Assembly: GCA_037447475.1 (NCBI GenBank)
Contig: JBBIGP010000004.1
Coordinates: forward strand, 7,713 to 71,712
Direction: 5' to 3'
DNA length: 64,000 nucleotides
Source of the DNA: Candidatus Aminicenantes bacterium
Lineage (GTDB): Bacteria; Acidobacteriota; Aminicenantia; Aminicenantales; Saccharicenantaceae
This document shows positions 34,907-46,830 of this stretch, in pieces. Position numbers and translations under genes: made by a program. Numbering within the stretch: position 1 is the stretch's first letter; each line of letters starts with the position of its first letter. A model generated the notes under the pieces. The model was given only the letters and a program-made list of their open reading frames with translations. It searched no databases and was not told the DNA's origin.

Positions 34907-35254
34907 ATGACCATAGCGACCCGAGACACGGACGGCGTTGTCATTTTCGACATCACGGGCGAGATCCGGCGCTCCGACAACATGGAAACGACTCTCCATC
35001 ACCTCGTCAAGTCCCACCTCGACCGGGGCAAGCGCAGGATCATGCTCAACTTGGAGAAGGTCGATTTCATCGACAGCTTCGGCGTCGGCGAGATCCTCGC
35101 TAGCTACATCTCCACCCAGAACCTGGGCGGGAGGTTCAAGCTCTTCAGCATCTCGAAAAAGCTCCTCCTCATCTTCCAGATCACGATGCTGACCAAGGTC
35201 CTCGACATCTACGAGGACGAGGGCTGCGCCCTGCGGAGTTTCGAACAGGCGTGA
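34907..35254 (+). CDS. STAS-domain protein (anti-sigma-factor antagonist, SpoIIAA/RsbV-like)
   Basis: 115 aa. VVIFDITGEI...IMLNLEKVDFIDSFGVGEIL carries the DSxG phosphorylatable-Ser motif. Confidence 0.85.
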   Translation: MTIATRDTDGVVIFDITGEIRRSDNMETTLHHLVKSHLDRGKRRIMLNLEKVDFIDSFGVGEILASYISTQNLGGRFKLFSISKKLLLIFQITMLTKVLDIYEDEGCALRSFEQA

Positions 35255-35281
35255 CCGGGCCGGCGCTGAGCGCGACGCTCC

Positions 35282-37849
35282 ATGCCTGACGACGGCCGGC
35301 TGAACAGGTTCCTGAACCGTTTCGGCTTCGCCGATGTCCGCGTCCCCGAAACGCGGGCCGTGTCCTATCTCTTCGCCCTCTTCTTCCTGACGACATTCTC
35401 GTTCTACATCATCAAGCCGGTCAAGGAGACCTTCCTCATCGGGGTGACTCCCGCCTGGTGGCCGTACGCGGACCTGGCCACGGCCCTGCTCATCGGCTTC
35501 GTCGTGGCCCTCAACGCCAGGCTCCTCAACCGCCTTCCGCGGCGGGCCTACTTGACGGGGACCGTCCTGTTCTTCGCCGCCTGCTTGTTCGTCTTCTGGT
35601 ACGTTTTCGACGCCGCCCTGCAGCTCCAGATCCGGACGCCCGTGATCCACTCCTCGGCCATTTTCGGCGTCATTCCCTTCCAGGTCGCCGTCCGCAACAT
35701 CTGGCCCCTTCCGGTGTTCGCCTTCAGCTTCTTTTCCGATGTCTTCATCGCCATGTCCGTCACCCAGTTCTGGATCGCGGTCAACGATACCCTCGATCCC
35801 TACCAGGCGAAGAGGACGGTCGGCCTGTTCGTCTCGGGGGGGCTGTTGGGCGGGATCGCCGGCGCCCTCCTGACGTCCCTCCTCGTCCGCGTCGTCGGCC
35901 CCGAGAACCTTCTCCTCGCCTGCCCCGGCATCCTCCTCGTCGTCCTGGCCGCCGTCCGCCTCGTCTACGGCGAGCAGAAAAAGCACAGGGGGGAGGCCGA
36001 GCCCTCGGCATCCCCGCCCAAGGCCCGGGTCGGCTACCTGGAGAGCTTCGGCGCCGTCCGGAGGAACAGGTATCTCCTGCTCCTGGCCGGGCTCCTGGCC
36101 TCGGCCATGGTCGCCGGGTCGCTCATCAACTATCAGTTCAAGATCGTCGTCAAGAGCGTCTTCGCGAGCAGCGTCGACCGGACCTCGTTCCTGGGCTCGT
36201 TCTTCTTCGCCATTCTCGTCCTCTCGACCCTTTTCCATCTGGCCGCCACGCGCCTCGTCCTGAAGAATTTCGGCATCCGGCTGGCCCTCCTCGTGGCCCC
36301 CGTGGTCCTGCTCCTCGGCTCGCTCTCGGTCTTCCTCCTCCCGGCCGGCGCCCTGATGGCCTGGGCCAGTCTCGTCAGGGGCGGCGACAAGATCTTCGAC
36401 AACACGATCGGCCAGTCGGTCCGGGAGCTGCTCTACATCCCCGTCCCGGACGAGATCAAGTACAAGGCCAAGATCTTCATCGACATGTTCGTCAACAAGT
36501 TCGCCGTCGGGCTCGGGGCCGGGCTGTTCCTCCTGCTCTACCACGCGTCGCGCTTCGCCTACAAGGCCGAACCGGCGCAGGTCCGGGAGGTCGGCGTCCT
36601 GGCCGTCGCCTTCATCGCCCTCTGGATGGTTCTCACGGGCGTCGTCTACGGGGAGTACCCGAGCGTCGTGAAGAAGGACCTGGCCCGCAAGTGGAAGGAC
36701 GCCGACAAGGTCGTCGAGGAGAGCGTGGACGTCGATGTGACCCGCCGCGTCTTCGACACCGTCCAGAGCCGGGAGCGGAGCGCGACCCTGTACGTCATGA
36801 ACGTCTTCGACCTCATGCGCCGCGGCCGCCTCAGCCCCGAGCTCAAGGAGCTCTTGGGATCCCAGAGGGACGAGCTCAGGGCCCGGTCCATGGACTGCTT
36901 GTTCGACGTCGGGGGAGAGGTCTTCTTCCAGGGGTTCGAGGAGGCCATCGCCGACGAGGACTTCGGGAAAGAGGTCGAGAAGGTCATCCAGTCGGACGAT
37001 TACAAGGCCCTCATGGAGGGACGCCTCGAGACGGTCGCCGGGTCCGCGTCGGAGATCGAGCGCATGGAAGCGGCCAGGCTCATCGGGATGATGGACCCGA
37101 CGCCCCGGGCCATGAGGGTCCTGAGCGTCCTTCTCCAGGACCCCTCGTCCGAGGTCGCAACGTACGCCCTCGACAGCGCGGCGATCCACCGGAGGAAAGA
37201 GCACATCCCCCTGGCTCTCTCCCAGCTGAGCAATCCCTTGACCTGCCAGGGCGCCCAGGCCGCCTTGGCCGCCTACGGCCCGGCCGCCGAGGAGGCCCTG
37301 AGAGCGGCCCTCCAGGACGAAGACCTGCCCCCCGGCGTCCGCCGGGCCATCCCCGATGTCCTGGGCCGGATCGGGACCCAGCGGGGGGCCGACATCCTTC
37401 TCGCCGAGCTCGGGAGGTGCGGCGAGGACATGGAGCCGGAGATTGTCGGAGCCCTTTACAGGATCCGCTCCGCCCGGCCGGGCGTTCTGTTCAAGGAGAA
37501 GAAGGTCCGTCCCGAGATCCTCCGCCTGGTCAGGAAAGCGGGGGAGATCTTCCTCGAGAGGGTCCTGGACGGACAGGACCCCGGCGCCACGGCGGCCCTC
37601 GACCTTCATGTCAAGCGGATTTTCGACCTGCTGACGCTCGTCCAACCGGCCGAGGACGTCGTCAAGGCCTACCAGAACATCCTTCAAGGGACGAAGCGGT
37701 CTGTCGATTATTCCCTCGAGCTTCTCGACAACCTGCTCGATCGGGAGCTCAAGAGGGCCCTCTTCCCGCTCCTCGAGGACCTCCCGCCCGAGGACAGGAG
37801 CGTCCGGCTGAGAAAGGCCCTTCGGGGCCTCGGCCGGGGCCGGGGTTGA
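35282..37849 (+). CDS. TLC/NTT-family (ATP/ADP translocase-like) transporter fused to C-terminal HEAT-repeat domain
   Basis: N-terminal ~440-aa polytopic domain with TLC signatures (FSFYIIKPVKETFLI; DNTIGQSVRELLYIPVPDEIKYKAKIFIDMF). The cytoplasmic tail has HEAT/PBS-lyase-like repeats (LQDPSSEVATYALDSAA; DEDLPPGVRRAIPDVLGRIG). Confidence 0.85.
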   Translation: MPDDGRLNRFLNRFGFADVRVPETRAVSYLFALFFLTTFSFYIIKPVKETFLIGVTPAWWPYADLATALLIGFVVALNARLLNRLPRRAYLTGTVLFFAACLFVFWYVFDAALQLQIRTPVIHSSAIFGVIPFQVAVRNIWPLPVFAFSFFSDVFIAMSVTQFWIAVNDTLDPYQAKRTVGLFVSGGLLGGIAGALLTSLLVRVVGPENLLLACPGILLVVLAAVRLVYGEQKKHRGEAEPSASPPKARVGYLESFGAVRRNRYLLLLAGLLASAMVAGSLINYQFKIVVKSVFASSVDRTSFLGSFFFAILVLSTLFHLAATRLVLKNFGIRLALLVAPVVLLLGSLSVFLLPAGALMAWASLVRGGDKIFDNTIGQSVRELLYIPVPDEIKYKAKIFIDMFVNKFAVGLGAGLFLLLYHASRFAYKAEPAQVREVGVLAVAFIALWMVLTGVVYGEYPSVVKKDLARKWKDADKVVEESVDVDVTRRVFDTVQSRERSATLYVMNVFDLMRRGRLSPELKELLGSQRDELRARSMDCLFDVGGEVFFQGFEEAIADEDFGKEVEKVIQSDDYKALMEGRLETVAGSASEIERMEAARLIGMMDPTPRAMRVLSVLLQDPSSEVATYALDSAAIHRRKEHIPLALSQLSNPLTCQGAQAALAAYGPAAEEALRAALQDEDLPPGVRRAIPDVLGRIGTQRGADILLAELGRCGEDMEPEIVGALYRIRSARPGVLFKEKKVRPEILRLVRKAGEIFLERVLDGQDPGATAALDLHVKRIFDLLTLVQPAEDVVKAYQNILQGTKRSVDYSLELLDNLLDRELKRALFPLLEDLPPEDRSVRLRKALRGLGRGRG

Positions 37850-37850
37850 A

Positions 37851-40034
37851 ATGGCCGGACGCGTCGTCTACAATGAGGGCGCAGGGGATGACATGCCCGA
37901 CTTCTACGTCTATCCCAAGACGGGCGATCCGTTCACCGTGCCGCTGAAGCCCGGCAAGATCACCATCGGCCGGGCGCCGACGAACGACCTCGTCCTTTCC
38001 GACCAGTTCAGCTCGGGATGTCACGCCTCCGTCTATCCGACGACAAGCGGATTCGTCCTTCTCGATCACGGCAGCAAGAACGGCACGTTCGTCAACGGCA
38101 AGAAGGTCACGGGGGAGATCCTCCTGGCCCGGGGGGACGAGATCCTCATCGGCTCGACGAGGATCTACTTCGACCGGGAGTTCCAGAGCAGCATCGAGAT
38201 GGTCGAGGGGACGACCTTCACCCACAGCTCGAACACCATCATCCAGGTCAAGGACATCCTGAAGAAGGCCCCCACGGCCGGCGACTACAGGACGCCCGGA
38301 GGGGAGCTCGACCTGGGGAAGCTCCAGCAGGAGCAGAAGATGATCGCGGTCATGGGGGAGGTCAGTCAGGCCCTCATCTACCACATGCCCCTCGACAAGC
38401 TGCTCAACCACATCATGGACGTTCTCATCCAATACCTGCCCATGGACCGGGGCGTCCTGATGCTCAAGGACCCGGCGACGGGCGAGCTCGCCCACAAGGT
38501 CGTCCGCGTCCAGAGCGGGTCCCTGAGGACGCAGAACATCGCCATCAGCAAGACCATCGTCCAGACCGCCGTCGAGAAGAACTCGGCCATCCTGCTGTCC
38601 GACATCCGGTCGGACGAGAGGTTCGGCGGCCAGGCCAGCGTCATCCAGGCCCAGATCCATTCGGCCATGTGCATCCCCCTCTGGAACAACCAGAACATTC
38701 TCGGGCTCATCTACGCCGACCGGGCCTCCCTCGTCGAGCAGTTCACGGAAGACGATCTGAAGCTGCTGACCCTGCTCGCCAACCTGGCCGCGGTCAAGAT
38801 CGAGAACGCCCGGCTCTACGAGAATTCCCTCAAAATGGAGCAGATGGAGCGCGAGATGGCGATGGCCGTCCAGATCCAGAAGAACTTCCTGCCCCGGGGG
38901 AACCCGTGGTTCGAACCCTACGACGTCAGCGGCAGCATGCGGGCCTGCCACCACGTCGGCGGGGACTACTACGATTTTCTGCCCGAGGCCGACGACCGGC
39001 TGGGCATCGTCATCGCCGACGTCTCGGGGACGGGGGTCAGCGCGGCCCTCCTCATGGCCAACCTGAGGGGGGCCCTGACCGAGAAGTTCCCGGTCACGCC
39101 GGACCTGGGCGAGCTGGTCGCCAAGCTCAACGACTTCGTCCATTCGAGCTCGGACAGCCATTGCTTCATTTCTTTTTTCCTGGCCGTCCTGGACCGCGCC
39201 CGGGACAGGCTGACCTACGTCAATGCCGGCCACAACCCCCCCCTGCTCGCGGACGATCGCGGCCGGATCAGCCGGCTCGAGAGCACGGGTCTCTGTCTCG
39301 GCATGTTCCCGGCCCGGGCCTACGAGCAGCGGACGATCGACCTCGGGCCGGGGGACGTGCTGTGCCTCTACACGGACGGGATCGTCGAGGGCCGGAACAA
39401 GGGCGGGGAGGAATTCGGGGAGGAGAGGCTCGCGGGGATCCTCCGGTCCGCCGCGGCCATGCCGGCCCGGGGGATCATGGAAAGGATCTACGAGGAGGTC
39501 CTCGCCTTCACGGACTGCTCCGCGGCCGGCGACGACATGACCCTCGTCGTCGTCCGGAAGAACCCGCGGCGGGAGGACGGCGAACGGTCTTCGACGGAAA
39601 GGGACGTGCGGGAGATCCGGGTCCCCGCCGCTCTCGAAGCCGTCGACCGCGTCAGGGAGTTCCTCCGGGCCTACATGGGCGAGCAACGGGTCCCCGACGA
39701 GGAGGCCCTGGCCGTCGAGCTCTCGCTCCACGAGATCTGCGTCAACATCGCGATGTACGCCTACTCCGGGGGTCCGGCGGGAGAGATGGCCGTCCGGATC
39801 TGGAACGATGACGGCATGCTGTTCCTCGAGATCCGCGACCGGGGCGTCCCCTTCGACCCCGCGGGAAAGCCGGACCCCGACCTTCTCGTCAAGGTCCGCC
39901 GCGGGCAGCGGGGCGGATTAGGCGTCTTTTTCTTCAAGACCCTCATGGACGGCTTCACTTACCGCCGGGAGAACGGGGAGAACGTCCTGACCGTCCGCAA
40001 GCGGATCCCGCCCCGGCCCGCTCCGGTTCAGTAG
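37851..40034 (+). CDS. Multidomain signalling protein: FHA - GAF - PP2C/SpoIIE phosphatase - RsbW-like HATPase
   Basis: FHA (ITIGRAPTNDLVLSD...GSKNGTFVNG). GAF (DRGVLMLKD...LGLIYADR). SpoIIE (VGGDYYDF, ADVSGTGVSAAL, NAGHNPP, LYTDGI). HATPase_c_2 (LHEICVNIAMYAY, IRDRGVPFD, GGLGVFF). ATG 37893 is an alternative start. Confidence 0.9.
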   Translation: MAGRVVYNEGAGDDMPDFYVYPKTGDPFTVPLKPGKITIGRAPTNDLVLSDQFSSGCHASVYPTTSGFVLLDHGSKNGTFVNGKKVTGEILLARGDEILIGSTRIYFDREFQSSIEMVEGTTFTHSSNTIIQVKDILKKAPTAGDYRTPGGELDLGKLQQEQKMIAVMGEVSQALIYHMPLDKLLNHIMDVLIQYLPMDRGVLMLKDPATGELAHKVVRVQSGSLRTQNIAISKTIVQTAVEKNSAILLSDIRSDERFGGQASVIQAQIHSAMCIPLWNNQNILGLIYADRASLVEQFTEDDLKLLTLLANLAAVKIENARLYENSLKMEQMEREMAMAVQIQKNFLPRGNPWFEPYDVSGSMRACHHVGGDYYDFLPEADDRLGIVIADVSGTGVSAALLMANLRGALTEKFPVTPDLGELVAKLNDFVHSSSDSHCFISFFLAVLDRARDRLTYVNAGHNPPLLADDRGRISRLESTGLCLGMFPARAYEQRTIDLGPGDVLCLYTDGIVEGRNKGGEEFGEERLAGILRSAAAMPARGIMERIYEEVLAFTDCSAAGDDMTLVVVRKNPRREDGERSSTERDVREIRVPAALEAVDRVREFLRAYMGEQRVPDEEALAVELSLHEICVNIAMYAYSGGPAGEMAVRIWNDDGMLFLEIRDRGVPFDPAGKPDPDLLVKVRRGQRGGLGVFFFKTLMDGFTYRRENGENVLTVRKRIPPRPAPVQ

Positions 40035-40921
40035 AGGACCTTCTCTTCTCCGTTCATCCTGACGAGCCTGTCGATCTCCTTGAGGACGAGGTCCCTGCGG
40101 ACGAGCACGGCCTTGATCTCCTCGTCCGTGAGGTACTCGCCCACGACGCCCTTGACGGCCTCGGCATCGAGCGTCTTGATCTTGTCGACGATGGCCCGGG
40201 GCAGCTCGCTCATGAGCTTGGGGCCTTCCTTGTGCTTTTCCGTGTAGATCAGGCTCTTCGTGAACTTCCCCGAGGCCCGGAAGGACCGGGAGTGGTCGAT
40301 GAGGATCATCCGCCAGTCGGGCTGGGTGATGAGGATCTGGTTCTGGTGGCGGTCCTCGTTGGCGATGAGATTGTCCCAGAACCGCTGCAGGTAGGTCGCC
40401 CGGTTCCAATAATAGACCCTGATGGGCGGGACCTTGAGGTTCTTCTGCTCCTTGTCGCGGAGCGTGATGCAGTCCTCGACCCAGAGCTGGCAGGACCCGC
40501 GCTCCGCGCGGTAACGTCGCTCGACGGTCGGGGGGACCATGTTGAGCCCGAGGTGCTTGTCGAGGAGATAGGCGGCGACCTCGTAGTTCCAACCCTCCCA
40601 ATACCCGCCCATCCGGCCTTGGGCGTTCTTCCACAGGGCCCGGTGGGACACGTCGTCCTTTTTCAGGGTCAGGACCCAGGGGCTGGTCACGGATTCCCTT
40701 CCTGTCATCTGCCGGCTGTCGACGACCTCGGCCGTCCTCAGGAACTCCTCCCACTTCTCCCGCTCGGCCAGGTCTTCGGGCGTGAACTGGGCGGCGCCGA
40801 GTCGCGGGGCCGGCCCTCCGGGGCCGTTGGCCGGGCTCATGGCGTGGCCCAGGAGGACCACGGACAAGACGCCGGCGGCGATGGCGCCGGACACGATGGA
40901 TACGATCGCGGACTTTTTCAT
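40028..40921 (-). CDS. Exported PI3/PI4-kinase-like (type II PI4K-like) protein, paralogue 1
   Basis: Signal/anchor MKKSAIVSIVSGAIAAGVLSVVLLGHA. Motifs RALWK, EVAAYLLDKHLGLNMVPPT, GSCQLWVED, NLIANEDRHQNQILI, WRMILIDHSRSF. Strong GGGAGGG SD. Confidence 0.7.
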   Translation of the reverse strand: MKKSAIVSIVSGAIAAGVLSVVLLGHAMSPANGPGGPAPRLGAAQFTPEDLAEREKWEEFLRTAEVVDSRQMTGRESVTSPWVLTLKKDDVSHRALWKNAQGRMGGYWEGWNYEVAAYLLDKHLGLNMVPPTVERRYRAERGSCQLWVEDCITLRDKEQKNLKVPPIRVYYWNRATYLQRFWDNLIANEDRHQNQILITQPDWRMILIDHSRSFRASGKFTKSLIYTEKHKEGPKLMSELPRAIVDKIKTLDAEAVKGVVGEYLTDEEIKAVLVRRDLVLKEIDRLVRMNGEEKVLY

Positions 40922-40970
40922 TCTTCCCTCCCTGATCTATCCGGTCGATGGCCCAGCCATCTCCTCTCCC

Positions 40971-41807
40971 TCAGTAGAGGACGGCGGCTTCGCCCTGTTC
41001 CCGGACCATCTGGCGGATCTCCTTGAGCAGGAGGTCGCGGCGGGCCAGTACGGCCCGGATCTCCTCGTCCGTGAGGTACTCTCCCACAGCGGCCCGGATG
41101 GTCTCGAACGATAACTCCCGGATCCGGTCCACGAACGAGCGTGGCAGGCGCCGGAAGAGGAACGGCGTCCCCTGCATGGACGTCTGCAGGCCCCGCTGTC
41201 CGAACATCAGCCTTTTCGTGTGCTCCTTCGTCGCGCGGAACGACCGCGAGTGGTCGATGAGGATCATCCGCCAGTCCTCGGTGTAGAGGATGTTCTGCTG
41301 GTTCCGGTCCTCGTTGGCGATGAGACTGTCCCAGGCGCGGGTCAGCCACTTCATCTTTTCCGTGTGTTCCGTCACGGAGTCGGGAATGCGGATGTTGTTG
41401 TCGACGATCTTTTCCAGGCTGTGCTTGTTCTCGGCCCAGAGGACGAGGGCGCCGCTCTGTCCCTGGAACTCCCGCTCGACGGCCGGTGGGATCATGTTCA
41501 AGCCGATGAGCTTGTCGAGGCGGTAGGCGGCGATCTCGAATCGCCAGCCCTCGTAGAAGCCCAGCTGCATGCCGCTCGGGTTCTTCCAGCAGGCCGCCGC
41601 CTCGCGGTCTCCCTGTTTGAGAGTGAGCTTGAAGGGCTTGGTCACCCCTTCGCCGATCTCCTTGAAGCCGGCGATCTCGGCCGTCCTCAGGAACTCCTCG
41701 AACGCTTCTCTCGCGGCGATCTCGTCCGGGGTGAATTGCCCGAACAGGGCGGCCGGAGCCGCTATGAGCAGGAGAAGGCAAACGGCGGCCCGAAACGCAC
41801 ATATCAT
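40971..41807 (-). CDS. Exported PI3/PI4-kinase-like (type II PI4K-like) protein, paralogue 2
   Basis: Start re-picked at ATG 41807 (GGAGGA SD 7 nt upstream): MICAFRAAVCLLLLIAAPAALFG. Motifs AACWK, EIAAYRLDKLIGLNMIPPA, ALVLWAEN, SLIANEDRNQQNILY, WRMILIDHSRSF. Confidence 0.7.
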   Translation of the reverse strand: MICAFRAAVCLLLLIAAPAALFGQFTPDEIAAREAFEEFLRTAEIAGFKEIGEGVTKPFKLTLKQGDREAAACWKNPSGMQLGFYEGWRFEIAAYRLDKLIGLNMIPPAVEREFQGQSGALVLWAENKHSLEKIVDNNIRIPDSVTEHTEKMKWLTRAWDSLIANEDRNQQNILYTEDWRMILIDHSRSFRATKEHTKRLMFGQRGLQTSMQGTPFLFRRLPRSFVDRIRELSFETIRAAVGEYLTDEEIRAVLARRDLLLKEIRQMVREQGEAAVLY

Positions 41808-41915
41808 CGAATCTTCCTCCGATGGCACCCTGATGCTCCTATCATAAGGAGGGTCAAGGGGGAAATCAAGCCCAGCCCGAGCCCCGTTTCCGCTTCGTGT
41901 GGCCGTCGAGGGGGA

Positions 41916-43406
41916 TCAGGCTTTGGCAAGGGCATCCTGGGCGGTCTTCCGCCTTCGGTAGGCGGGAATGATCTTGAGACAGATGCCGATCAGGACGGCC
42001 ACGGCGAAGACGTTGAGGAGAGCGTAGTTTTCGATGTGAAGTCCGAGAAGGTGGACGCCGATGAGGACGGCCAGCGCTGAAAGCGTGTCTCCCCCCCTGA
42101 CAAAGAAGGTGTCGATAGCCGCCTTGGCTTTATACTTCTCCTCCCGCTTGGTGACCAGGAACAGCGCGGCCTTGGTCGTATTCTGAAGGGAATAGTCGGT
42201 GCCGTTCTCGAAGGCCTTGACCCAGCGGACGAGCACGAGAACGGCTCCGAAGGAAATCAGCGTGTAGCCGCCCAGGGCGATGAGAGGAAGGAAGAGCAAG
42301 GCCCCTCCCACGCCGATCCACTTGAAGATGCGCGAGACCAGGAAGAGCTGGATGATGAGGGCGATCAGATTGGTCAGGAACTGGTAGTTCATGAATGCGC
42401 TGTGAATGGCCTTGCTCTCCGTTCCGGCGGGCAAGGCCGGGGACGCCGCCGGGCGCTTCCGATCGGCTCCATCGTCGGGAAGCGGGACGAGCCGGCCCCG
42501 CGGGCCTCCCGCGGCTCCATCGGCTATCGACTCCCTGACCGTGACGGCGGTGATGATATATTCCCCGGTCGCATTGATGAAATTATAGAGGCCGATCATG
42601 GCCGCGATGAGAAGAAGGTAGCGGCTCTTGAAGATCAGCCGGAACCCTCCTCCCGCTCTTAGCGGCTGTTCACTGGCGACGCTTTCCTCCTCGGCCTTGG
42701 CCAGGCCCTTTTCGCGGGCCTCGCGGGTGTCCCGGACGGCCCGGTTGTGGATATGCCAGGCCAAGGCGATGCAGAGCAGCAGGATGAGGCCCGCGATGAG
42801 CATGAGCTCGTATTCCCAGTTCTCCCCCAGGATATCCCTCAACCGCTTCATGATCGGCAAGGTCGCGACGAGCCATCCGAGCGTGGCTCCCAGGGCGACG
42901 AGCGGAAACGTGCGCTTTCCGACCTCGTCCGAATAGAGGTCGTTCGCGAAGCCCCAGAACTGGGCGATCACGAAATAATTGAATATGCCGATCCAGATGA
43001 AGAACATGATCCCCATGGGCTTGACGGCCATCCCGCTCAAGTTGAGGAAATAGAAGACGACGAGGTTGGAGATGAAGAATGATGTTGTCCAAGTGATAAG
43101 GATATGCCGAGGCACCCTGGAAGCGAGGCGACTGAATGCCTTGATGACGAAGATGAAGAGAACGGCTTGGGCCCCGCTCAGGTAGCTCTTGACTTGAGGG
43201 GAACCCTGGTCAACAAGGAGAAGCGACTCGCGCAGCGGCTTGAGGATGTAGTAGGCCAGAAGCAAAAGAAAGATGTTGAGGGCGAGCAGGAGGGCCTTCA
43301 GGGCTTCCCCCTTGCGGACGTCGGCGAACAGCCTGAGGAAGCCGTAGCCGATGTTCGAAGTAGCGCCGCCCGACGGCGGGATCCCCCCGCGGATTCTATC
43401 CCCCAT
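41916..43406 (-). CDS. TLC/NTT-family (ATP/ADP translocase-like) nucleotide transporter
   Basis: 496 aa, polytopic. LLLAYYILKPLRESLLL; IAQFWGFANDLYSDEVGKRTFPLVALGATLG; DYSLQNTTKAALFLVTKREEKYKAKAAIDTF. These match remembered Rickettsia Tlc motifs (FWQFANQI..EAKRFY; KYSLFDATKNMAYIPLD..KGQAAVE). Confidence 0.85.
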   Translation of the reverse strand: MGDRIRGGIPPSGGATSNIGYGFLRLFADVRKGEALKALLLALNIFLLLLAYYILKPLRESLLLVDQGSPQVKSYLSGAQAVLFIFVIKAFSRLASRVPRHILITWTTSFFISNLVVFYFLNLSGMAVKPMGIMFFIWIGIFNYFVIAQFWGFANDLYSDEVGKRTFPLVALGATLGWLVATLPIMKRLRDILGENWEYELMLIAGLILLLCIALAWHIHNRAVRDTREAREKGLAKAEEESVASEQPLRAGGGFRLIFKSRYLLLIAAMIGLYNFINATGEYIITAVTVRESIADGAAGGPRGRLVPLPDDGADRKRPAASPALPAGTESKAIHSAFMNYQFLTNLIALIIQLFLVSRIFKWIGVGGALLFLPLIALGGYTLISFGAVLVLVRWVKAFENGTDYSLQNTTKAALFLVTKREEKYKAKAAIDTFFVRGGDTLSALAVLIGVHLLGLHIENYALLNVFAVAVLIGICLKIIPAYRRRKTAQDALAKA

Positions 43407-43427
43407 GTCGACCTCCCTCCGGGACGC

Positions 43428-45311
43428 TCAGATCAGGACATGGCCCTCCCCGCGGGTCTCGATGAGCCTTTTGATGATCCGGATGATGAGGTCACGGCGG
43501 GAATGGAGGGCTTCGATCTCTTCTTTGTCGAGATGGGGCGACAGAAGGAGGAAGACCGCCTTCCTGTCCCACCCCAGGAGCTTGCCGAAGAGGTCTTTCG
43601 AGCACTTGCGGATCTCGCATCCGGGCGGAAGGCTCTTCCGGGGCGCGAAGGCTTCCGAGAAATCGACGCGGTAGATCCGCTGGTCGTCGCGGCTGACGAG
43701 CACGTCCCGGTCGTTGTCGCACTCTTCGTGGACGAGCATCTCGAAGAGCCGCAGGTCTTCCCGGTCCCGCTCGAAGGCCGCGGGCCGGGCCGGGGCGAGC
43801 TTCTGCTCCTTCCAGTCGAATTCCGAGATGGCGTTCTCGACGAAGACCTGCAGGGAGCCGGGGATCCCGTCGATCTCCCGCTCGATGACAGGCGGGACGA
43901 ACGCCAGCTTGAGGTACTTGGCGAGGTCGTAAGCGGCCAGCTCGTAGCGGTAGCTGTCGGGGAGCGGGTGAGGGCGGCGCCGGTCGATGTACTTGAACAT
44001 GGCCCTGCGCGTGACGCCGTCCTTCTCGAGGGTCACCCGCCAAGGCTCCGTCCGCCCGGCGGCGGCCGTCTTGCGGGCCATGGCCTTGGCCGTCCTGAGG
44101 AACTCCTCGACGGCTTTGGCCGAAGCGAGCGGTTCCGGGCGGGTGACGACCGGAGAGCTGCGGGCGGCGGCCTCTTCCGTCTCGCCCCAGAGCTCGAACC
44201 GTCCGTCCTCGTAGATGAGGGCCGCGGGCAGGCCGCCGTAAAACTCGGAGATCCCGGTGTCGATGACGAAGACCTTGCCGCCGAAGCGGCTGACGGTCTC
44301 GAGGGTCGCGATGGGGCTCGACCCGGCGTTGTTGACAGGCAGATAGCTGTGGCCGACGACGATGGCCCGGGCCCCGAGGTTGTCCAGGATACGGTCGACC
44401 TCGGCCTGAGCGGTGCCTTCGATATGGGTCGTCAGGCCCCGGAACCAGACCGGGCCGTCCGGCGCGTAGACGAGCTTGGGCTTGAAGGGCCTAAAATAGC
44501 GATGAGGGGACTTGATCCTCTCCCGGAACTCCTCGAGCTCCTTTCTCATGAGGTCGTTCGTCTCGCGCAACGGCCGTTTCGAGTAGTGCTCGTTGACGCC
44601 CCCGTGGAGGTAGACGACGTCGTTGATCTTGATGATGGTGTTCTTCGTCAGCAGCCAGCTTCCGTACAGGTCGTTGAAGGCGTTGACATAGGCCAGGCGG
44701 GCCTCCCGGTCGTGGCGGATGACACGCTGCCAGTAGGCCCGCAGAGCTTCGTCCGTCCCGAGATCCAGGCCCTCGGCCTCGGCCTGGCGGCGCCGGTCGC
44801 GGGGGAGCCTGGCGATGTAGGCCGCTTCCAGGGACCTGCGGACGCCGTCCGGGAGGAAGGAGACGAACTGCTCGGGCGTGACGTACTGAGGATAGTCCAG
44901 GGCGATGCCGGTGATGTTCATCTCCTCGTGGTTGCCGATGAGGACGTGGACCAAGCCGCCGGCCGCCTCGGCTTCCTTTTCGAGGCGCATGAGAAGGTCC
45001 ATGATCTTCCTGGCGTCGGGGCCGCGGTCCATGATGTCGCCGAGCTGGACGAGGTGGGCCGTCCCGGCGGTCCATCGGAGGTCCGCGTCGATGACGCCGA
45101 CCTCGGGGTTCGAGAGGATGAAGACGAACCGGTCGTAGTCGCCGTGCAGGTCGCCGACGGCGACGACGCGGCCGACGCCGGACCAGGCATAGGGGATCTC
45201 GGAGGCGGGAGAGAGCGGGACATGGAGCAGGATGAGCAGGAGAAGAATAAACAGACCTTTGAGGGGCCGACATGGGGCCTGTCGCGACCATCCCCTGCTG
45301 CGTTCGGGCAT
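43428..45311 (-). CDS. Exported PPP/calcineurin-type metallophosphoesterase fused to a degenerate PI4K-like domain
   Basis: Signal-like N-terminus (LKGLFILLLLILLHVPLSPA). GDLHGD, GDIMDRG, GNHE, LHGG and VGHS motifs in residues ~50-325. Residues ~395-627 are homologous to the two downstream kinase-like proteins but carry DNDRDVLV / YRVDFSEAF. Confidence 0.8.
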   Translation of the reverse strand: MPERSRGWSRQAPCRPLKGLFILLLLILLHVPLSPASEIPYAWSGVGRVVAVGDLHGDYDRFVFILSNPEVGVIDADLRWTAGTAHLVQLGDIMDRGPDARKIMDLLMRLEKEAEAAGGLVHVLIGNHEEMNITGIALDYPQYVTPEQFVSFLPDGVRRSLEAAYIARLPRDRRRQAEAEGLDLGTDEALRAYWQRVIRHDREARLAYVNAFNDLYGSWLLTKNTIIKINDVVYLHGGVNEHYSKRPLRETNDLMRKELEEFRERIKSPHRYFRPFKPKLVYAPDGPVWFRGLTTHIEGTAQAEVDRILDNLGARAIVVGHSYLPVNNAGSSPIATLETVSRFGGKVFVIDTGISEFYGGLPAALIYEDGRFELWGETEEAAARSSPVVTRPEPLASAKAVEEFLRTAKAMARKTAAAGRTEPWRVTLEKDGVTRRAMFKYIDRRRPHPLPDSYRYELAAYDLAKYLKLAFVPPVIEREIDGIPGSLQVFVENAISEFDWKEQKLAPARPAAFERDREDLRLFEMLVHEECDNDRDVLVSRDDQRIYRVDFSEAFAPRKSLPPGCEIRKCSKDLFGKLLGWDRKAVFLLLSPHLDKEEIEALHSRRDLIIRIIKRLIETRGEGHVLI

Positions 45312-45477: not shown

Positions 45478-46830
45478 GTGACGAAAGGACGGTGGACCGT
45501 GCGTTTCGGATCGTTCGTTGGTGTCATAGGGCTTGTGGGAATGTTTGTCGTTCTTGCCGGGGTTTCCGGCTGCAGGGGAGGCGGGCGGCCGGTCCCCTCC
45601 GAGGATGTCGCTGTGACGGTCAAGCCGGGCGTCGAGGTCTTCCTCGAGAGATATGTCGGGCTCGTGGAGGGCAAGCGCGTCGGCCTGATCACCAACCCGA
45701 CGGGAGTGGATGGGCGCCTGCGGTCGACGGTGGACCTGTTCGCCGGGAGCCCCGATATCGACCTGGTCGCGCTCTATGGCCCCGAACACGGCGTCAGGGG
45801 GAACGCGCAAGCCGGCGAATACGTGCCGTTCTACATCGACGACAAGTACGGTTTGCCCGTTTTCAGCCTCTACGGACAGTCGTTCAAGCCCCCGCCGGGC
45901 ATGCTCAAGGACATCGACGAGCACATGCGGTCGTTCGACACGGACATCGCCGGGAAGGTCCCCGAGAAAGCCATGGTCGAGAGCGTCGACGTCCTCGTCT
46001 TCGACGTCCAGGACGTGGGGACGAGGGTCTACACCTATATCGCCACCATGGCTTACGCGATGCAGGCGGCGGCCGAGAGCGGCATCGAGGTCATCGTCCT
46101 GGACCGCCCGAACCCCGTCAACGGCGTGGACATGGAGGGGCCGATCCTGGAGTATCCCGCATTCAGCTCGTTCGTCGGGCTCTATCCCGTCCCTGAGCGC
46201 TTCGGCATGACGATGGGCGAGCTGGCCCTGCTCTTCAACGACAGGTTCCTGGAGAAGAAGGCCCGTCTGACGGTCGTCGCCATGGAGGGCTGGAAGAGGC
46301 CGATGTGGTTCGACGATACGGGACTGCCCTGGATCATCCCTTCGCCCAACATGCCGACCCTCGACACGGCCACGGTCTATCCGGGCCAGGTCTATATCGA
46401 GGGGACGAACATGTCGGAAGGCCGGGGTACGACCCGGCCGTTCGAGCTGTTCGGAGCGCCTTGGATCGACGGCCACGAGCTGGCGAAAAGGCTCAACGGG
46501 CTCGGCTTGCCGGGCGTCGTCTTCCGGGAGACCTGGTTCACGCCGTGGTTCTCCAAGTTCCAAGGGCAGCTCTGCGGAGGCTGCCAGGTCCATGTCACGG
46601 ACAGGGAGGCATACCGGTCGTTCGGGACCGCGCTGCACGTCATCAAGACGGTCCGGGACATGTATCCGGACAAGTTCGCCTTCCATGCGGACTACTTCGA
46701 CAAGGTCATGGGGACGGACAAGGTCCGCCGGGCTCTCGAAGCGGGGGAGACCGTCCCAGCGATCCTCGAGAGACTGGAGCCCGGGCTGGCCGCCTTCGCC
46801 GCGCTCCGCCGCCCGTATCTGCTCTATTAG
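45478..46830 (+). CDS. DUF1343 family lipoprotein (NamZ-like exo-beta-N-acetylmuramidase family)
   Basis: Lipobox LAGVSGC. GLITNPTGVD, ALYGPEHG, VLVFDVQDVGTRVYTYI, IVLDRPNP and PSPNMPT are typical DUF1343 motifs. GTG start (45478, or 45499). Confidence 0.85.
   Translation: MTKGRWTVRFGSFVGVIGLVGMFVVLAGVSGCRGGGRPVPSEDVAVTVKPGVEVFLERYVGLVEGKRVGLITNPTGVDGRLRSTVDLFAGSPDIDLVALYGPEHGVRGNAQAGEYVPFYIDDKYGLPVFSLYGQSFKPPPGMLKDIDEHMRSFDTDIAGKVPEKAMVESVDVLVFDVQDVGTRVYTYIATMAYAMQAAAESGIEVIVLDRPNPVNGVDMEGPILEYPAFSSFVGLYPVPERFGMTMGELALLFNDRFLEKKARLTVVAMEGWKRPMWFDDTGLPWIIPSPNMPTLDTATVYPGQVYIEGTNMSEGRGTTRPFELFGAPWIDGHELAKRLNGLGLPGVVFRETWFTPWFSKFQGQLCGGCQVHVTDREAYRSFGTALHVIKTVRDMYPDKFAFHADYFDKVMGTDKVRRALEAGETVPAILERLEPGLAAFAALRRPYLLY

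Follow-up and report, generated by a model that had tools for sequence, protein, structure and literature searches.

The 64,000-nt window analysed here (contig JBBIGP010000004.1 of assembly GCA_037447475.1; all coordinates are positions in this window) belongs to a metagenome-assembled genome (MAG) of a sediment bacterium, Candidatus Aminicenantes of the Acidobacteriota, and harbours an operon of four minus-strand genes which encode an exported phosphatase with a fused kinase-like domain, a transporter of the TLC family and two exported kinase-like proteins designated K3 and K4. In our estimation the chances are about even that these proteins work as a kinase/phosphatase system outside the cytoplasm which receives its nucleotide from a regulated exchanger of the TLC family. 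As described in an initial annotation of this DNA, the open reading frames of the phosphatase-kinase fusion (627 residues; 43428-45311), the small TLC transporter (496 residues; 41916-43406), K3 (278 residues from ATG; 40971-41807) and K4 (297 residues; 40028-40921) point in the same direction and are closely spaced, the intergenic gaps measuring 21, 87 and 49 nt. That annotation had read the operon as an exported kinase/phosphatase set supplied with nucleotide by the TLC protein and had likened the kinases to type II phosphatidylinositol 4-kinases (PI4K2, PI4K-II). Gene anatomy, export signals and gene linkage speak for this reading, which is supported in part and calls for refinement: FAM20 secretory kinases are as close as PI4K2, the kinase-like domain fused to the phosphatase is a probable pseudokinase, and the broader partner of the kinases is a second type of transporter which combines TLC and HEAT domains (TLC-HEAT). 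The GC content of the window amounts to about 65%, and the closest relatives of each gene examined are found in Aminicenantes MAGs.

The protein encoded at 43428-45311 starts with a signal peptide (about residues 1-37) which is followed by a phosphatase domain (about residues 39-385; approximately 44157-45197) and a C-terminal kinase-like domain (about residues 395-627; 43431-44129). All phosphoprotein phosphatase (PPP) motifs noted in the initial annotation, namely GDLHGD, GDIMDRG, GNHE, LHGG and GH (the latter within VGHS), are read in the sequence, and Pfam Metallophos matches with an E value of 1e-10. Residues 39-322 align to the cold-active "protein-tyrosine phosphatase" of Shewanella (1V73/2Z72; E 7e-35), the matches to the solved structures 1v73, 2z72 and 2zbm ranging from E 7e-35 to 2e-34; the match to a Rhizobiales-like phosphatase is far weaker (E 3.5e-4). 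To judge by these alignments, the phosphoesterase is a Shewanella-like PPP phosphatase (Shelph), which is more specific than its designation as a generic metallophosphoesterase. With the solved enzyme it shares the GDxHG/GDxxDRG/GNHE/HGG/GH set and an N-terminal export signal. In contrast to that stand-alone enzyme, the phosphatase of the window is fused or adjacent to a kinase-like domain and linked to a TLC gene. The fusion is kept at about 620 residues in at least 120 homologues, while in some clades Shelph and kinase-like domain are encoded by separate genes.

The identity of the phosphatase bears on an explanation in which the phosphoesterase and nucleotide-binding kinase-like domains process extracellular nucleotides, dinucleoside polyphosphates or other phosphoesters and the TLC protein, much as its relatives in intracellular bacteria, takes up nucleotides or the products, with no extracytoplasmic phosphorylation taking place. 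It could draw on the weak NCBIfam matches of the Metallophos region to tetraphosphatases of the ApaH/PrpE kind (E between 1e-3 and 3e-3), on locus L166, which carries a SurE fragment with Na/Pi-cotransporter and PhoU genes nearby, and on the statement in PMC5381601 that the characterised TLC and nucleotide transporter (NTT) proteins all act as importers in vivo. We nevertheless regard such scavenging as improbable, as the phosphatase clearly is a Shelph, hence a PPP of the protein-phosphatase type (E 7e-35) and not an ApaH. Moreover, it would convert nucleotides to nucleosides, which are not known as substrates of TLC proteins. Scavenging would also leave unexplained both the strictly conserved phosphotransfer residues of K3 and K4 and the repeated occurrence of an intact kinase-phosphatase fusion.

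The C-terminal domain of the fusion protein (some 230 residues) is, as the initial annotation had it, homologous to both K3 and K4 over its full length, with 32% identity to K4. The kinase motif set which had been proposed is complete in K3 and K4; what had been overlooked is that the catalytic loop of the fused copy is degenerate, reading HEECDNDRD instead of ANEDRHQNQ. Counting one genome per GTDB species, as for K3 and K4 below, the catalytic Asp is missing from all 55 orthologues of the fused domain, Cys taking its place in 36 and Ser, Arg, Gly or a gap in the others; the beta3 Lys is kept in 54 of them and the DFG-like metal-binding Asp in all 55. Since the catalytic Asp is lost, the Shelph-fused domain of Aminicenantes is a probable pseudokinase which is best read as nucleotide-binding. 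The supposition that all three kinase-like domains are active is thus rejected for this copy. Outside Aminicenantes the fused copies remain catalytically intact (NxDRNxGNxL ... IDH[ST]R[AS]F), for which reason the Aminicenantes arrangement looks like a duplication with subsequent decay of the fused copy.

K3 and K4 are tandem paralogues, as had been proposed, and share 48% identity. In K4, an N-terminal signal peptide or anchor and a Pro/Gly-rich linker precede the catalytic set K98, E114, D190 and D209. The beta3 Lys, the alphaC Glu, the catalytic Asp and the metal-binding Asp are present in 80 of 80 K4 orthologues; among the 73 orthologues of K3, Lys, catalytic Asp and DFG-like Asp are invariant and the alphaC Glu is found in 72. 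The ATP-binding Lys (K98), the DRxxxN loop (D190-R-H..N) and the DFG-equivalent Asp (D209) are therefore conserved throughout both sets (80/80 and 73/73). From this conservation we infer that K3 and K4 are putative enzymes and catalytically competent. For K3, an alternative GTG start at 41828 would extend the protein to 285 residues; gene callers choose the ATG. A sigma-70-like match (TTGATT-17-TATGAT, 9 of 12 positions; 41841-41869, minus strand) falls into the 87 nt which separate the TLC gene from K3, so that K3 and K4 may also be transcribed on their own. Yet, the scan for promoters and terminators returned matches at consensus level only, this one included, and we give them no weight.

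By sequence profile, K3 and K4 are hard to place. PI3_PI4_kinase (PF00454) matches K4 with 17.0 and K3 with 16.1 bits against a threshold of 27.1, in the catalytic loop only, and further weak Pfam matches are obtained to HipA_2 (K3 only) and FAM198; for Fam20C (PF06702; gathering score 26.8) there is no match in the window proteins at E <= 0.1. The best NCBIfam match, covering most of the domain, is TIGR03843 (K4, E 9e-12; K3, E 3e-9), the actinobacterial SCO1664 family of unknown function. With 36 to 45 bits versus a cutoff of 172 bits, K3 and K4 are far from being members; SCO1664-type proteins, moreover, are presumably cytoplasmic. Of solved structures, a sequence-profile search of the PDB recovers FAM20A (E 9e-4), FAM20B and FAM20C as sole relatives and does not detect PI4K2. 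The AlphaFold2 model of K4 (predicted local distance difference test score, pLDDT, 81; predicted template modelling score 0.80; 37 sequences) is confident outside signal peptide and linker. When it is compared with the PDB by Foldseek, PI4K type II beta and alpha rank first (E 2e-7, TM score up to 0.56), followed by PI3K/PIKK kinases. As modelled, K4 appears to have a kinase fold of both the PI4K2 and the FAM20 type. The PI4K2 likeness put forward in the initial annotation accordingly stands at the level of the fold, with PI4K2B and PI4K2A ranked first, but not as family membership: FAM20 is equally close, and while PF03219 and Metallophos pass for transporter and phosphatase, PF00454 stays sub-threshold for K3 and K4. 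The kinase-like family stands at equal distance from PI4K-II and from the FAM20 secretory kinases and belongs to neither.

The likeness to PI4K2A and PI4K2B comprises the fold, the ATP-binding Lys, the DRxxxN loop and the DFG-equivalent Asp. The type II enzymes, however, are eukaryotic, palmitoylated at a CCPCC motif and face the cytosol. None of the kinase-like sequences contains such a motif, and a Sec signal peptide is found instead. Among the FAM20 proteins, FAM20C is the Golgi casein kinase, FAM20B a xylosylkinase and FAM20A a pseudokinase, and their lumenal ATP is provided by a dedicated nucleotide transporter of the endoplasmic reticulum and Golgi. Besides the kinase fold, the proteins of the window have in common with them an N-terminal signal directing them out of the cytoplasm, and a pseudokinase beside kinases recalls FAM20A and FAM20C. 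They differ from FAM20 in being bacterial and, by prediction, periplasmic, in scoring below the Fam20C gathering score, in a domain of about 250 residues which lacks the FAM20 N-terminal segments, in having a PPP phosphatase as partner, often within one polypeptide, and in that the candidate nucleotide supplier is of the TLC/NTT instead of the SLC35 type.

Atypical kinase-fold enzymes can catalyse reactions other than phosphorylation. K3 and K4 might hence AMPylate or UMPylate their targets in the manner of SelO or use a phosphate donor other than ATP, with the TLC protein moving UTP, GTP or NAD+. That TLC relatives carry several nucleotides as well as NAD+ (PMC5381601, reference list) and that the TLC proteins are too divergent for a substrate assignment (48.8 versus 387 bits) would suit such a chemistry. 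We consider it unlikely, given that PI4K2, FAM20, CtkA, HipA and CotH, the nearest structural relatives, all are ATP-dependent phosphotransferases and that the co-conserved partner is a phosphatase, as befits the reversal of phosphorylation.

Signal peptides, which we judged by eye, confirm the export N-termini ascribed earlier to the phosphoesterase, K3 and K4, as they are retained in orthologues. They end just before a conserved QF(T/R)PEE, as in MKKILITFFSLVIIIAFNLQCFA followed by QFTPEE; canonical signal peptides of orthologues end, for instance, between NLQCFA and QFTPEE and between SSPAA and DIPYSWTG. A lipobox replaces the signal peptide in some K4 orthologues, and nearly all of the best 150 family representatives start with a signal peptide. 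Because a TonB-dependent-receptor-type outer-membrane barrel is encoded in the window, the organism can be taken to be a diderm with a periplasm.

The small TLC transporter contains the TLC/NTT signatures noted in the initial annotation and matches Pfam PF03219 with E 2e-16 (60.3 bits; gathering score 21); a HEAT domain is missing. The solved NTT ATP/ADP carriers 9j3n (E 1e-5) and 9j3j (E 5e-4) match as well and have the motifs FWGFAN..KR and Y.L..TK..P..E.K.K.KAAID in common with it, the HMMER alignment to 9j3n spanning the signature motifs only. The 387.2-bit cutoff of NCBIfam TIGR00769 ("NTP/NDP exchange transporter") is not reached (48.8 and 35.2 bits). Crude hydropathy suggests some 11 to 12 helices and a central loop of 119 residues; the orthologues, 73-86% identical, are automatically named ATP:ADP antiporter. 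A second transporter, the TLC-HEAT fusion protein (855 residues; 35282-37849, plus strand), is encoded on the opposite strand, 2.2 kb downstream of K4, and matches Pfam TLC (E 2e-12, 47.2 bits), MFS_1 and HEAT_2. It shares about 30% identity with the small TLC, though only within the N-terminal 166 residues, about one third, and the two are, as far as this comparison goes, different TLC lineages.

While Pfam TLC membership and homology to solved carriers connect these proteins with the NTTs, the NTTs that have been characterised bring nucleotides of the host into plastids or obligate intracellular bacteria. The host of the present ones is a free-living diderm, its TLC proteins are very divergent, and the next gene of the operon encodes an exported Shelph-kinase fusion. 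[quoted passage not shown]

The gene linkage put forward in the initial annotation extends well beyond the window. Our figures refer to sampled loci and are no genome-wide profile. Among 51 species-level Aminicenantes loci with enough upstream flank, the full order Shelph-TLC-K3-K4 is found in 34, the small TLC is found upstream of K4, in the same orientation, in 36, Shelph is adjacent in 44, and a TLC-HEAT gene occurs within 10 kb on either side of the cluster in 36. As a stricter test, a profile built from distant members only (about 30-35% identical to K3/K4) retrieved 80 metagenome loci, in which clustering of the neighbours yields only two recurrent genuine partners: Shelph, present in 16 loci, and TLC-HEAT, present in 7 and in 3 of these immediately upstream in the same orientation. 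Nine further distant representatives with precomputed Pfam annotation comprise five Shelph-kinase fusions and four single-domain proteins. Three of the five fusions (L164, representative P0282; L165, P0356; L169, P0361) adjoin a TLC-HEAT gene, in part with a cyclic nucleotide monophosphate (cNMP)-binding domain. In L165 the TLC-HEAT-cNMP gene runs 4 nt into the start of the fusion gene; in L169 the genes succeed one another as TLC-HEAT, cNMP-binding protein and fusion, their stop and start codons overlapping (4 nt). On the truncated 2.8-kb contig of L167 (P0345) a cNMP-binding gene is located directly upstream of the fusion. In one of the four single-domain members, a single gene separates it from a TLC gene. 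Altogether, the loci in which a TLC-HEAT gene neighbours a kinase-like or Shelph-kinase gene are L097, L106, L135, L147, L160, L164, L165 and L169. A 652-residue unannotated upstream protein in L168, considered as a divergent TLC, was rejected, as it possesses a single hydrophobic segment and matches no TLC hidden Markov model.

The phylogenetically widest partner is hence the TLC-HEAT(-cNMP) lineage and not the small TLC. As two TLC lineages are tied to the kinase/phosphatase pair, and this in lineages whose gene orders differ, the linkage argues strongly for a functional, albeit non-obligatory, connection. One might instead suppose that unrelated envelope genes have become neighbours by chance in one lineage; one or more partners are indeed missing from some loci, and many single-domain relatives reside in unrelated contexts, such as L171 beside a ribosomal operon. 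An incidental neighbourhood is effectively excluded, however, by the recurrence of the linkage where the kinase domains are only about 30-35% identical, by the varying gene orders, by the fusion of some domains and by overlapping start and stop codons. The succession of NTT-HEAT and a cNMP-binding gene in L165 and L169 corresponds to that described in PMC5381601, and the distant operons of TLC-HEAT, cNMP-binding domain or gene and Shelph-kinase fusion add one gene to this 2017 pairing; in the PMC5381601 text as searched there is no mention of an exported Shelph-kinase gene next to NTT-HEAT.

The kinase-like domain is covered by no Pfam model. Searched exhaustively with HMMER, 1.84 billion representatives of clusters defined at 50% identity yielded 4,512 relatives at E <= 1e-3 and 674 at E <= 1e-30. 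They occur as single-domain secreted proteins of about 270-300 residues, as Shelph fusions of about 620-800 residues, as tandem duplications and in an anti-sigma form, and the only names supplied for them are "hypothetical protein" and "metallophosphoesterase". Among 99 diverse members, Pfam matches at E <= 0.01 are obtained to PI3_PI4_kinase in 52 (best E 2e-7), HipA_2 in 31, Fam20C in 17 and FAM198 in 7, while each non-kinase family is matched by one member at most; one relative (P0245) passes the Fam20C gathering score (29.4 versus 26.8 bits). The phyla of distant members can be inferred only loosely, for instance from the Planctomycetota-type neighbours (PSCyt2/PSD1/DUF1501) at L169.

The anti-sigma form is represented by P0388, a metagenome protein of 488 residues in which a cytoplasmic anti-sigma domain of the zf-HC2 type, then a single transmembrane helix and a long Pro/Ala-rich linker precede a kinase-like domain. 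The latter sits at the standard position of extracytoplasmic sensor domains, which accords with export of the family, and is degenerate, with the metal-binding Asp changed to Gly (LRLIGHARSF) and a decayed catalytic loop; the family thus apparently has been recruited as an extracytoplasmic sensor domain here. Near several distant kinase-like genes (context of P0309; L168) we also encounter Omp85-family proteins and extracytoplasmic function (ECF) sigma/FecR-type anti-sigma genes, which points to an envelope-related role. P0388, these ECF sigma/anti-sigma neighbours, the pseudokinase on Shelph in the window organism and the regulatory modules flanking TLC-HEAT would all agree with signalling in place of catalysis: the exported kinase-like domains would be ligand-binding or pseudoenzyme sensors, and TLC-HEAT a transceptor or scaffold relaying an envelope signal via HEAT, cNMP-binding or STAS/PP2C/RsbW partners, while transport of nucleotides in bulk would not be its purpose. 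We give this explanation little credence, since every catalytic residue is retained in the majority of the family, K3, K4 and the fused copies from outside Aminicenantes among them, as expected of enzymes rather than sensors, and since the TLC membrane domain retains its transport signature motifs. Signalling of this kind, besides, would be compatible with regulated ATP export and not opposed to it.

The reading we favour, a kinase/phosphatase system outside the cytoplasm with its own nucleotide exchanger, can be outlined as follows. Exported K3 and K4 would use ATP in the periplasm to phosphorylate an envelope substrate, from which exported Shelph would remove the phosphate, and the pseudokinase domain on Shelph may scaffold or activate K3/K4 as FAM20A does for FAM20C. 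By analogy with the nearest folds, proteins (FAM20C, CtkA), glycans (FAM20B) or lipids (PI4K2) come into question as targets. A TLC/NTT-family antiporter in the inner membrane would send cytoplasmic ATP out and take periplasmic ADP, plus inorganic phosphate (Pi), in. Trentmann et al. are said to have found in 2008 that in non-mitochondrial NTTs ATP is counter-exchanged against ADP plus Pi; in the outward direction, such a stoichiometry would bring back precisely what a kinase/phosphatase cycle produces. Costly as it is, ATP export would be gated by cytoplasmic parts, in other phyla the HEAT and cNMP-binding domains and in the window organism, as candidates, a STAS protein and an FHA-GAF-PP2C-HATPase_c_2 protein, i.e., a partner-switching set of the STAS/PP2C/RsbW type. 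An exchange of ATP out for ADP in which fuels envelope phosphorylation is consistent with all findings.

A number of observations weigh against this outline. K3 and K4 reach the Pfam gathering threshold of no kinase family. The small TLC is very distant from the characterised NTTs (48.8 versus 387 bits; PDB E 1e-5), and its AlphaFold2 model, derived from a shallow alignment of sequences 73-87% identical, is poor (pLDDT 42.9). TLC relatives also carry NAD+, other nucleoside triphosphates and other substrates, so that ATP/ADP is not to be assumed. The in-operon TLC is missing from 15 of the 51 Aminicenantes loci, no TLC is within reach in 19 of 24 long metagenome loci, and three of the four single-domain distant members have none within 8-10 kb. 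Finally, ATP, with about 0.5 kDa, could leak through outer-membrane porins, which would make a periplasmic pool costly.

The presumptive gating proteins are encoded together with TLC-HEAT. Directly upstream of it lies the gene of the STAS-domain protein (34907-35254, plus strand; Pfam STAS E 5e-11), and 1 nt downstream that of the FHA-GAF-SpoIIE(PP2C)-HATPase_c_2 protein (37851-40034, plus strand; SpoIIE E 1e-50, HATPase_c_2 E 1e-25, GAF, FHA), which converges on K4 with an overlap of 7 nt. The three genes form a tight plus-strand operon (34907-40034) which looks like a partner-switching (RsbV/RsbU/RsbW-like) module around the transporter. The order STAS / TLC-HEAT / SpoIIE / HATPase_c_2 recurs in L001-L003, and most Aminicenantes loci keep the pair of SpoIIE and TLC-HEAT next to the kinase cluster. 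From their position, the STAS protein is a possible regulator of the system and the FHA-GAF-SpoIIE-HATPase_c_2 protein a possible cytoplasmic partner-switching regulator.

On its other side the operon is flanked by the divergent gene of the exo-beta-N-acetylmuramidase NamZ (45478-46830, plus strand; Pfam E 3e-80), whose position is kept in the window-like Aminicenantes clade; a link to the kinase module, for instance by way of a glycan or peptidoglycan substrate, may exist. Loci of the Saccharicenans type contain, on the opposite strand between TLC and K3, the gene of a lipoprotein (about 277 residues, with lipobox) which is absent from the window and carries a domain of the SdiA-regulated/phytase-like beta-propeller type (PF06977, E 7e-15); it is found at 4592-5425 in L030, 8010-8828 in L034, 7228-8133 in L038, 7247-8110 in L045 and in similar loci. 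The assemblies of L001 and L002 agree in an identical K4 and in length and order of SpoIIE, HATPase_c_2 and TLC-HEAT, K3 being called with 290 and 278 residues, respectively. Upstream, L002 has Shelph and TLC, whereas L001, on a 3.2-Mb contig, has DUF6599/DUF362/RmuC, which reflects either a true rearrangement or a mis-join in one of the assemblies. A role in anti-phage defence was dropped, as none of the four operon proteins has a significant PADLOC match.

The individual parts belong to known superfamilies, but for the architecture of secreted kinase, secreted PPP phosphatase and dedicated TLC transporter we found no bacterial description. Our literature searches turned up no account of periplasmic, FAM20-like or PI4K2-like kinases in bacteria, nor of SCO1664 or the Aminicenantes operon, which does not prove that none exists. 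In the textbook view the periplasm is devoid of ATP, and envelope processes draw on the inner membrane or on lipid-linked donors. A conserved module of kinase, phosphatase and TLC transporter challenges this view, and the question can be tested with three defined proteins. If the favoured reading is true, it would overturn the assumption that no ATP-dependent phosphorylation takes place in the periplasm. More tentatively, and somewhat short of an even chance, many free-living diderms may export ATP via TLC/NTT antiporters, including the NTT-HEAT(-cNBD) type, to power secreted PI4K-II/FAM20-like kinases which act against a Shelph, fused or encoded alongside, in a reversible phosphorylation of the envelope. 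The NTT and NTT-HEAT proteins of free-living bacteria would thereby gain a function, a question which has been open since at least 2017 (PMC5381601). The relatives described here define a large unannotated kinase family of about 4,500 clusters at 50% identity. Being structurally between type II PI4K and FAM20, these bacterial proteins bear on the origin of both eukaryotic families, and the system, if it operates as proposed, would be the bacterial equivalent of phosphorylation in the secretory pathway of eukaryotes, to which it may also be related by evolution.

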